Position numbers and translations under genes: made by a program
Part shown: one piece after another, positions 8,557-9,002 of the stretch
Layout: every line of letters begins with the position of its first letter
Position numbering within the stretch: the first letter of the stretch is position 1
The notes under the pieces: generated by a model
What the model saw: the letters and a program-made list of their open reading frames with translations, nothing else
What the model was told of the DNA's origin: nothing
The model's database searches: none
Assembly: GCA_048885925.1 (NCBI GenBank)
Contig: JBHLLG010000093.1
Coordinates: forward strand, 1-11,374
Length of the DNA: 11,374 nucleotides
Reading direction: 5' to 3'
Origin: Candidatus Hermodarchaeota archaeon
GTDB lineage: Archaea; Asgardarchaeota; Lokiarchaeia; Sigyniarchaeales; SOKP01

Positions 8557-8595
8557 ATTACCCCTTAATCGAATTATAAAGTCTAAATAGAACCC

Positions 8596-8607
8596 TTAAT
8601 ATTTAAA
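8596..8607 (-). promoter_or_regulatory. Putative archaeal TATA box for the microprotein gene
   Basis: TTTAAATATTAA on the minus strand about 40 nt upstream of ATG 8556; the identical 12-mer lies upstream of the dodecin gene. Confidence 0.4.
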
Positions 8608-8704
8608 ATTTGATCATTAATTTTAGTTATATTCTTTTATTTGGAATAATCATTGAAAATTAAATTTTGAAAAAAGAAAAAAAAATAAAAATTATATTAA
8701 AAAT

Positions 8705-8941
8705 TTATCTTTCTAATTGGAAGTTAACTTGAACTCTGACGCGATAAATGAGTTTTTATTGAATTAATCTGAGTTAGATAAATTTATCAATATCTTCTTT
8801 AACTTTCACGTCAGATTCAATAATCTGAATGTTTCGAATACCACGTAAGCTTTTCTTTGCTTCATCATAACAATTTCTTACAGCTTCTGCCCAATTCTTA
8901 TCAGATGTACCTACTAATTGAATACTTTTGTAAACTGGCAT
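8705..8941 (-). CDS. Dodecin-family protein (calcium-dodecin-like), split into exon 1 (8941-8786) and exon 2 (8755-8705) by a 30-nt putative BHB intron
   Basis: Joined product is 68 aa: MPVYKSIQLVGTSDKNWAEAVRNCYDEAKKSLRGIRNIQIIESDVKVKEDID|KLIYRVRVQVNFQLER*, with dodecin hallmarks VYK.I.LVGTS...W..A, A.KSLRGI and YRV...V.F. Unspliced, it reads ...DIDKFI*LRLIQ*KLIY... SD-like AGTGA lies upstream. Confidence 0.88.
8756..8785 (-). other. Putative 30-nt bulge-helix-bulge intron in dodecin mRNA
   Basis: Insert AAATTTATCTAACTCAGATTAATTCAATAA. Central 4-bp helix ATTG/CAAT, 3-nt bulges AT^A and AA^A, inner 9-position stem (8 pairs plus one U-U) with a 5-nt loop. Cutting after the second nt of each bulge removes exactly 30 nt and both stops. 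Confidence 0.75.
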
Positions 8942-8990
8942 TTTGGTTTCACTTTTATTTTAATTTTTTTGTAAGTTAATTTGTTATTCG

Positions 8991-9002
8991 TTAATATTTA
9001 AA
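8991..9002 (-). promoter_or_regulatory. Putative archaeal TATA box (with purine-rich BRE-like AGAAA upstream) for the dodecin gene
   Basis: Minus strand reads AGAAATG-TTTAAATATTAA about 50 nt upstream of ATG 8941. Confidence 0.45.

Follow-up and report, generated by a model that had tools for sequence, protein, structure and literature searches.

The stretch of DNA analyzed here, called the window throughout, comprises 11,374 nucleotides (nt; positions 1 to 11,374 of contig JBHLLG010000093.1) from a Candidatus Hermodarchaeota archaeon. It belongs to a metagenome-assembled genome (GCA_048885925.1; G000 in our numbering) that is 95% complete, with 4.4% estimated contamination and ~28% G+C, and whose nearest named relatives are metagenome-assembled Promethearchaeota, a phylum of the Asgard kingdom Promethearchaeati. 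On the minus strand, at 8941-8705, we found a dodecin gene that is interrupted by 30 nt at 8785-8756, and we consider this insert to be, in all likelihood, an intron of the bulge-helix-bulge (BHB) type inside the coding sequence of an mRNA. The gene is laid out as follows.

8786..8941, minus strand: dodecin exon 1, codons 1-52, with the start codon ATG at 8941-8939 (open reading frame translation, Pfam Dodecin match, orthologue alignment)
8756..8785, minus strand: putative 30-nt BHB-type intron (absent from 15 intact same-genus orthologues; homology-optimal excision)
8705..8755, minus strand: dodecin exon 2, 16 codons plus TAA 8707-8705 (read-through translation; residues equal to the orthologue C terminus)

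The insert holds two in-frame TAA codons, at 8776-8774 and 8758-8756. The minus-strand open reading frame (ORF) 8941..8774 ends at the first of them and encodes 55 amino acids (aa), which match the Pfam family Dodecin (PF07311) with an E value of 1e-12 over profile positions 1-48 of 64, the C-terminal quarter being missing. Past this TAA, the same frame runs through five codons, the TAA at 8758-8756, 16 codons, and the terminal TAA at 8707-8705, and the read-through translation scores higher against PF07311 (52.3 bits). Excision of exactly 8785-8756 yields a small protein (~68 aa) that is a member of the dodecin family, a 68-aa dodecin with the length and C terminus found in the orthologues.

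The archaeal splicing endonuclease EndA cuts after the second nucleotide of each bulge of a BHB motif. The transcript around the insert can be folded into such a motif, with these elements.

8788..8791, minus strand: central helix H, 5' strand, exon 1 side, AUUG (4/4 pairs with 8761-8758)
8758..8761, minus strand: central helix H, 3' strand, intron side, CAAU (4/4 pairs with 8791-8788)
8785..8787, minus strand: 5' bulge AU^A, predicted cut between 8786 and 8785 (EndA rule, in agreement with the orthologue junction)
8755..8757, minus strand: 3' bulge AA^A, predicted cut between 8756 and 8755 (fold and orthologue junction)
8762..8784, minus strand: inner helix h' and loop, with arms 8784-8776 and 8770-8762 and loop 8775-8771 (AACUC) (8/9 pairs)

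The inner hairpin h' thus has 8 of 9 pairs, with one U.U mismatch and a 5-nt loop. When the excision was optimized by homology alone, the window insert gave a unique optimal length of 30 with 4 equivalent boundary placements, only one of which has the 4-bp helix. Among 300,000 random placements in the window genome, a 4-bp helix in register occurred at a frequency of 0.026, and the combination of the 4-bp helix with a closing hairpin of at least 7 pairs occurred 138 times (4.6e-4, 0.046%). A sequence-only reading of this stretch had described a dodecin gene broken by a 30-nt in-frame insert with two TAA codons, which sequence, frame, and Pfam confirm. Every coordinate of the fold it had drawn (4-bp helix, 3-nt bulges, inner stem-loop, and weak outer helix) was reproduced, and the 68-aa dodecin it had obtained by removing exactly 30 nt under the EndA rule has the junction of the intact orthologues.

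We searched 40 related genomes for dodecin and obtained a match in 28. Within the genus, 15 of 17 loci (L002-L016) encode an intact 68-aa dodecin whose junction sequence equals that of the predicted spliced product, and the spliced window product has the length and the junction-to-C-terminus residues of most of these 15 orthologues. Two same-genus genomes carry inserts at sites other than that of the window, namely 30 nt inside codon 16 in G004 and 32 nt at codon 22/23 in G013 (locus L019). Among species-representative genomes, inserts were present in 3 of 80 dodecin loci: L069 has a 34-nt insert at the window's own site, L085 is the G004 contig, and L110 has a 31-nt insert at codon 47/48. Metagenome contigs provided 80 dodecin loci, of which 68 are intact, 1 is partial, and 11 bear inserts (L262, L264, L271, L279, L280, L292, L293, L303, L304, L319, and L267). 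For all 11, a BHB-compatible excision is among the homology-optimal ones; one insert lies at the window's site (L267, 29 nt), five at codon 47/48, and five at a new site near codon 56. Taken over the related Promethearchaeota, the dodecin inserts measure 29-38 nt and occupy five sites in a 68-codon gene, which on the evidence of these alignments is an intron hotspot.

Each of the five dodecin inserts that we examined for structure forms an inner hairpin with 8-10 pairs, whose closing pair lies no more than one base from the bulge. The coding sequence around the inserts is preserved. Exon 2 of the window and that of L069 differ at five positions, with 5 synonymous and 0 non-synonymous changes, and the exons remain conserved downstream of the inserts of 31, 32, and 34 nt, despite the frameshift that each of these causes.

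Contigs from two other studies cover the window's insert with 0 differences and no gaps, the insert being unchanged in both (run X4 record 8, spanning 8560-8861, and run X10 record 2, spanning 8646-8929). A 94%-similar contig from the same sediment sample (run X4 record 9) departs from the window at 8781 and continues as an intronless dodecin allele. This continuation indicates that intron-bearing and intronless forms coexist in nature. Two metatranscriptome runs (X21 and X22) yielded no sequence for this stretch, a result that bears on expression in neither direction.

To look beyond dodecin, we compared the ORFs in 1.2 Mb (36%) of the complete same-genus genome G006 (C1:1-1,200,000, L111-L170) with the window genome by tblastn; 962 G006 ORFs had a match there at an identity of at least 50%. 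Extra sequence was found at nine places in the window genome, seven of which are of the canonical BHB type. The seven interrupted genes, with Pfam identities taken from their G006 orthologues, are listed below.

C2:56851-56880, minus strand: EF-2-family GTPase, 30 nt
C5:45896-45925, minus strand: AMP/pyrimidine-nucleoside-phosphorylase-like protein, 30 nt
C176:2420-2449, minus strand: ribbon-helix-helix protein, 30 nt
C35:130-160, plus strand: CoA-transferase III, 31 nt
C15:18539-18569, minus strand: JAB/MPN protein, 31 nt
C12:62467-62497, minus strand: Ras-family GTPase, 31 nt
C6:5548-5581, plus strand: CdhA/prismane-like protein, 34 nt

A 9-bp stem with a 5-nt loop is found in three of the 30-nt introns, and this layout matches that of the dodecin intron, whose stem has 8 of 9 bp. 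The tally stands at no fewer than 13 sites in 8 genes, five of these sites being in the dodecin gene. In the reverse comparison, in which 1086 ORFs of the window genome matched G006 at an identity of at least 50%, G006 showed only two weak cases, one being a stop-containing insert of 21 nt and the other a shift of 8 nt. Set against the nine places in the window genome, these two cases indicate that the intron load differs between the sister genomes and is lineage-specific.

The intron in the EF-2-family gene lies after codon 63 and is common to 7 of 24 same-genus genomes (G000, G001, G013, G015, G016, G021, and G023; loci L191, L185, L189, L187, L194, L186, and L192, respectively), whose proteins share 94-99% amino acid identity over a 130-residue query spanning the intron. 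In G016, the P-loop region of the same gene holds another BHB intron of 30 nt (L194:1830-1866, minus strand). The window genome also encodes a second, distant EF-2 paralogue with 33% identity, and the interrupted copy may therefore not be its sole EF-2. The CdhA-like gene (781 aa) has its 34-nt insert at codon 70, and the following 711 codons are 94% identical to those of a relative. This intron site recurs in a second gene copy of G002 (L230, G002:C18), with a G-C to A-U change in the stem and with only 3/4 pairs in helix H.

Several further inserts were seen in the course of this comparison. In other relatives, the CdhA-like gene contains ~33 nt with a TGA (G020, L226) or ~60 nt without stops (G005, L227/L232). 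A 33-nt insert with a stop lies in the same CoA-transferase gene at a contig edge (G000:C35:28, plus strand), and no convincing BHB register was found for it. An 84-nt stretch with a stop in a TFIIB-like gene (G000:C2:37940, plus strand) has a direct repeat of a DDFFEE-coding segment at its borders and is more likely a tandem duplication with a second start codon than an intron. In many of the mini-introns, the bulges are A-rich and the 5-nt hairpin loop reads A-A/T-T/C-T-C (AACTC, AATTC, ATTTC); these shared features could reflect common descent, mobility, or enzyme preference.

The boundaries of 12 inserts, five in dodecin alleles and seven in the other genes of the window genome, were then determined without any structural filter by scoring every 9-60-nt excision by the similarity of its translated product to the orthologue. 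For all 12, there is one best excision length with 1-7 equivalent placements, and exactly one of these placements has a 4-bp helix in the BHB register, for which the chance is 0.026 per placement. By our own arithmetic, the joint chance at 11 independent sites is ~1e-13. The 4-bp helix with two 3-nt bulges is thus present in the window insert and in 12 of 12 inserts tested, and cutting at the bulges gives an orthologue-like product, the placement being homology-optimal in each of the 12. L085 has a single possible boundary placement, so it lacks a target-site duplication.

Homologous introns also show compensatory changes, in small sets (3 alleles and 6 genomes). In the alignment of the three alleles at the window's site (window, L069, and L267), 94.7% of the cells are paired, whereas sliding the 3' partner lowers the value to 12-40%. 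Among these alleles, both bases are exchanged in three pairs: two belong to the inner hairpin, and the third is the first pair of helix H, formed between an exon base and an intron base and changing from A-U to G-C in L267. In the EF-2-family intron, 97.4% of positions are paired across six aligned copies, with one compensatory G-C to A-U change. A covariance model built from five 30-nt introns (R1) was tried as a census tool and rejected. In a search of 16 sources, its hits included the second intron of G016, at 27.3 bits, and the CdhA-like introns, at 18 and 14.6 bits, but the window dodecin intron was missed at E values up to 10. We did not use it for the census because the model leans on sequence. 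MAFFT likewise misaligned the two dodecin introns against the other introns.

The window genome encodes the enzymes that such introns would need. There is one EndA gene of 198 aa (G000:C22:7621-8214), with 101.7 bits against PF01974 and 33.8 bits against PF02778, and an RtcB gene (G000:C12:26362-27669, 569.6 bits). EndA residues 18-198 align with Protein Data Bank chains 3p1z_B and 3ajv_B, whereas the Methanocaldococcus jannaschii homotetramer 1a79 aligns only from residue 67. The chains 3p1z_B and 3ajv_B belong to the Aeropyrum pernix heterotetramer, as catalytic subunits, and the loop that widens specificity presumably lies in the additional N-terminal segment of EndA. Asgard archaea are described in the relevant passage of PMC5829648 as having an (alpha-beta)2 EndA with an L1 insert. 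Only 31 tRNA genes were recognized by aragorn in the window genome, and of its intron calls, which concern 19 of these genes, many are implausible; many of the genome's tRNA genes are probably interrupted in ways beyond aragorn's recognition.

The structure, the exact junction, the recurrence at independent sites, the compensatory changes, the conserved exons, and the enzyme genes are direct observations, and the explanation that fits them best is that 8785-8756 is a BHB intron inside the coding sequence of the dodecin mRNA, a reading in which we have high confidence. Within the transcript, AUUG at the end of exon 1 would pair with the intron's CAAU, and the 8-of-9-bp intron hairpin would stack on this AUUG/CAAU helix, leaving one 3-nt bulge per strand. 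EndA would cut after the second base of each bulge, and RtcB would join the exons and circularize the intron, giving an mRNA for the full 68-aa dodecin. The element would be one of a population of stereotyped 29-38-nt mini-introns that have entered several protein-coding genes of a Promethearchaeota (Asgard) genus, and dodecin repeatedly. These Asgard archaea probably splice mRNA with the tRNA machinery. For the broader proposal, that the genus does so routinely and that a family of ~30-nt BHB mini-introns has repeatedly colonized its protein-coding genes, with a sharply different load in sister genomes, we find the balance of the evidence slightly favorable.

Three other explanations were weighed. 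A short palindromic DNA insertion, from a hairpin-forming or miniature mobile element, could have turned the gene into a pseudogene that makes the 55-aa product or nothing. The two in-frame stops would fit this, as would the inverted-repeat form of the inserts, which is frequent among small DNA elements, and the lack of a normal start codon in allele L019. However, a DNA insertion has no cause to pair 4 bp with the upstream exon in the BHB register, as 12 of 12 do, and the exon-intron pair of helix H covaries. The exons beyond the stops or frameshifts are conserved (5:0 in favor of synonymous changes in exon 2; 94% identity over 711 codons of the CdhA-like gene), 7 of 24 genomes retain the EF-2-family insert between exons that are 94-99% identical, and L085, because only one boundary placement is possible, has no target-site duplication. 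Neither exon decay nor an unconstrained insert was found, and we regard a pseudogene as very unlikely.

The same protein would be made without splicing if ribosomes bypassed the 30 nt, taking off at AAA 8785-8783 and landing at AAA 8755-8753. In the bypass known from T4 gene 60, take-off and landing codons are matched and a stop directly follows the take-off codon. AAA is present at both borders in 4 of the 5 dodecin inserts examined, that of the window included, a hairpin comes after the take-off site, and a bypass would tolerate any gap length, 31-34 nt included. In the window, though, the codon directly after the take-off codon is UUU rather than a stop. L085 lacks matching take-off and landing codons that would restore its product, and only an excision that splits a codon restores its conserved asparagine; no matched codons restore the EF-2-family product either, which would lose one aspartate relative to the orthologue, whereas excision restores the sequence exactly. 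A bypass would have no need of an exon-intron helix of 4 bp flanked by 3-nt bulges, which 12 of 12 inserts have, or of the covariation of this helix, and we consider a bypass highly improbable. Finally, the insert could be an assembly or binning artifact, or TAA could be read as an amino acid in a gene of 78 codons; the genome is indeed metagenome-assembled, with its estimated contamination of 4.4%, and the 30 nt are in frame. An artifact is hard to reconcile with the presence of the insert, with 0 differences, in contigs from two independent studies, or with the related inserts seen across many independent assemblies. Against a reassignment of TAA, this codon also terminates the gene, here and in the orthologues, and inserts of 29, 31, 32, 34, and 38 nt shift the frame. 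This last explanation is already largely refuted, and we give it almost no weight.

Besides the AAA codons at the borders, several observations weigh against BHB splicing of the dodecin mRNA. Cleavage and ligation themselves are events that we infer from comparative evidence. Of the first six positions of the outer exon helix h, only 1, 3, and 4 are paired in the window insert, and this helix is similarly weak in each of the five dodecin inserts examined, which therefore fit only the relaxed HBh' form of the motif. A relaxed HBh' motif needs an EndA of broad specificity, and it is because of such substrates that the missing second (beta) EndA subunit matters: none was found with PF01974, PF02778, or tblastn in this 95% complete genome. 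The fold is A/U-rich and weak (-0.9 kcal/mol for the inner hairpin and -4.4 kcal/mol for the 53-nt region), and the unconstrained minimum free energy structure of the 53-nt region has a slightly different register, with a 6-bp helix and one bulge, so that energy alone would not pick out the BHB structure. The covariation comes from few, related sequences, 3 at the window's site (shuffle control 30/500) and 6 for the EF-2-family intron (shuffle control 89/500). L019 has ATA where other alleles have ATG or TTG, and this allele may be a dead copy or may use an unusual start codon.

Two scans of the whole window genome, in which the motif was combined with a test for the joining of ORFs, also gave no excess over their controls. 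One required the 4-bp helix and at least 5 contiguous inner pairs, with a parallel-pairing decoy as control, criteria that would have missed the window's own intron; the other, controlled with shifted acceptors, required the 4-bp helix and a stem of 9 positions of which no more than 1 was mismatched. The counts equaled those of the controls at every ORF threshold (for example, 327 versus 295-349 at 50/50 codons). With so high a background from ordinary gene junctions, the motif alone does not find these introns, and the homology search was used for this reason. Such shapes are common at ~28% G+C, so the motif alone proves nothing, and the decisive evidence is comparative.

These results bear on the remaining proposals of the sequence-only reading. 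Its suggested genome-wide search for BHB inserts that restore split ORFs succeeded in part, the motif scans giving no excess and the homology-based search seven more cases, and these seven uphold its expectation that such genes are more widespread and are missed by annotation. It had looked to orthologous dodecins for intronless alleles and for introns with compensatory changes, and the alignment supplied both, the former as 15 same-genus alleles. It had also named what would point to a simple pseudogene, namely relatives with decaying exons and no conserved BHB pairing; the relatives instead keep the pairing, with compensatory changes and undecayed exons, which favors an intron. Assembly error, which it had wished to see excluded by mapping reads, is made very unlikely by the contigs of two other studies that carry the insert unchanged. 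The Asgard host that it had supposed agrees with the nearest named relatives, which are Promethearchaeota, and with the presence of the EndA and RtcB genes.

Around the interrupted gene lie three further features.

8947..8953, minus strand: Shine-Dalgarno-like AGUGAAA, 6-12 nt upstream of the ATG (block conserved in a 19-sequence orthologue alignment)
8993..9002, minus strand: candidate A/T-rich TATA-like box, ~52-61 nt upstream of the ATG (read from sequence only)
8670..8690, minus strand: T-rich tract resembling an archaeal terminator (T-run at the same place after the stop in orthologues)

The T-rich tract comes after the stop of exon 2, not after the stop that ends the exon 1 frame. In the genes flanking ~108 dodecin loci, 391 ORFs of at least 100 aa gave 0 split matches. 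The gapped inserts with stops seen in these flanking genes were rejected as ORF leaders. A 51-nt insert in L057/L010 was the one exception; it is ambiguous, and the best hairpin-based excision, of 40 nt, leaves it in the wrong frame. The gene adjoining dodecin has a C-terminal tail with stop-containing hairpin inserts in G002 and G004 (L057/L010 near 2048; L085:751-787, minus strand), and the covariance model R1 scored L085:751-787 (minus strand) at 19.4 bits with an E value of 0.12. At L047 and L059, in two genomes, the dodecin gene is followed after ~40 nt by a tandem second copy, which shares 74-75% identity with the reference protein.

A BHB intron in the cbf5 pre-mRNA of Crenarchaeota was reportedly described by Watanabe in 2002. 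Like that intron, which is removed by the tRNA splicing endonuclease and a ligase, the one proposed here lies in a coding sequence and has a patchy presence that implies gain and loss. Unlike it, the introns described here are from Asgard archaea (Promethearchaeota) and from other genes, with at least 13 sites in 8 genes and a stereotyped hairpin of 29-38 nt. Splicing of archaeal pre-mRNA had been confirmed for no gene other than cbf5 according to the conclusion of one paper (Yokobori 2009, PMC2738675), and cbf5 is called the only earlier example in a passage of another (PMC7714728). The latter describes, in the same part, a BHB intron in the 5' untranslated region (UTR) of the Haloferax volcanii HVO_1309 mRNA, with EndA action shown in vivo and in vitro (PMC7714728). 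In both HVO_1309 and the present case, a BHB motif on an mRNA would be the substrate of EndA; the HVO_1309 intron is a single one in an untranslated leader, whereas the introns here break coding frames by stops or frameshifts.

The eukaryotic HAC1/XBP1 mRNA undergoes unconventional cytoplasmic splicing, in which a protein endonuclease cuts out an intron bounded by small stem-loops and a tRNA ligase, RtcB in animals, seals the exons. A protein endonuclease and a tRNA ligase would likewise act on an mRNA intron here, the endonuclease presumably being that of tRNA splicing and not IRE1, which serves a stress-regulated switch. A part in XBP-1 splicing is ascribed to RtcB in the abstract of PMC8718801. 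With archaeal tRNA introns, the introns described here have in common the 4-bp helix with two 3-nt bulges and the same presumed enzymes; unlike them, they sit in mRNA, without a tRNA body that aids recognition. According to the portions bearing on this subject, tRNA introns are abundant in Asgard archaea (PMC11291895; bioRxiv 10.64898/2026.10.13.758758), and non-canonical relaxed motifs are common where EndA has the L1 insert, with repeated independent gains in Asgard tRNA genes (PMC11291895; bioRxiv 10.64898/2026.10.13.758758; PMC5829648). We found no report of BHB introns in Asgard protein-coding genes in the full-text literature, subscription journals and supplements being outside the scope of the search; examples could be among the supplementary material of PMC11291895 and bioRxiv 10.64898/2026.10.13.758758. 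What appears to be new, judged from these comparisons, is the occurrence of mRNA BHB introns in a new lineage and in many genes, with a stereotyped mini-hairpin design and a hotspot in dodecin.

The known archaeal mRNA precedents are essentially cbf5 of Crenarchaeota and the one Haloferax 5'-UTR case, and the organism studied here belongs to the archaeal group closest to eukaryotes. If our interpretation is true, gene callers systematically truncate or split such Asgard genes or mislabel them as pseudogenes, which would distort metabolic and phylogenomic inventories, and mRNA splicing by protein enzymes would be part of normal gene expression in these archaea. The repeated gains at variable sites would constitute a natural system for the spread of introns without a spliceosome. 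Under the broader proposal, the process of intron gain would still be active, and gain and loss would be directly testable in the closest archaeal relatives of eukaryotes.

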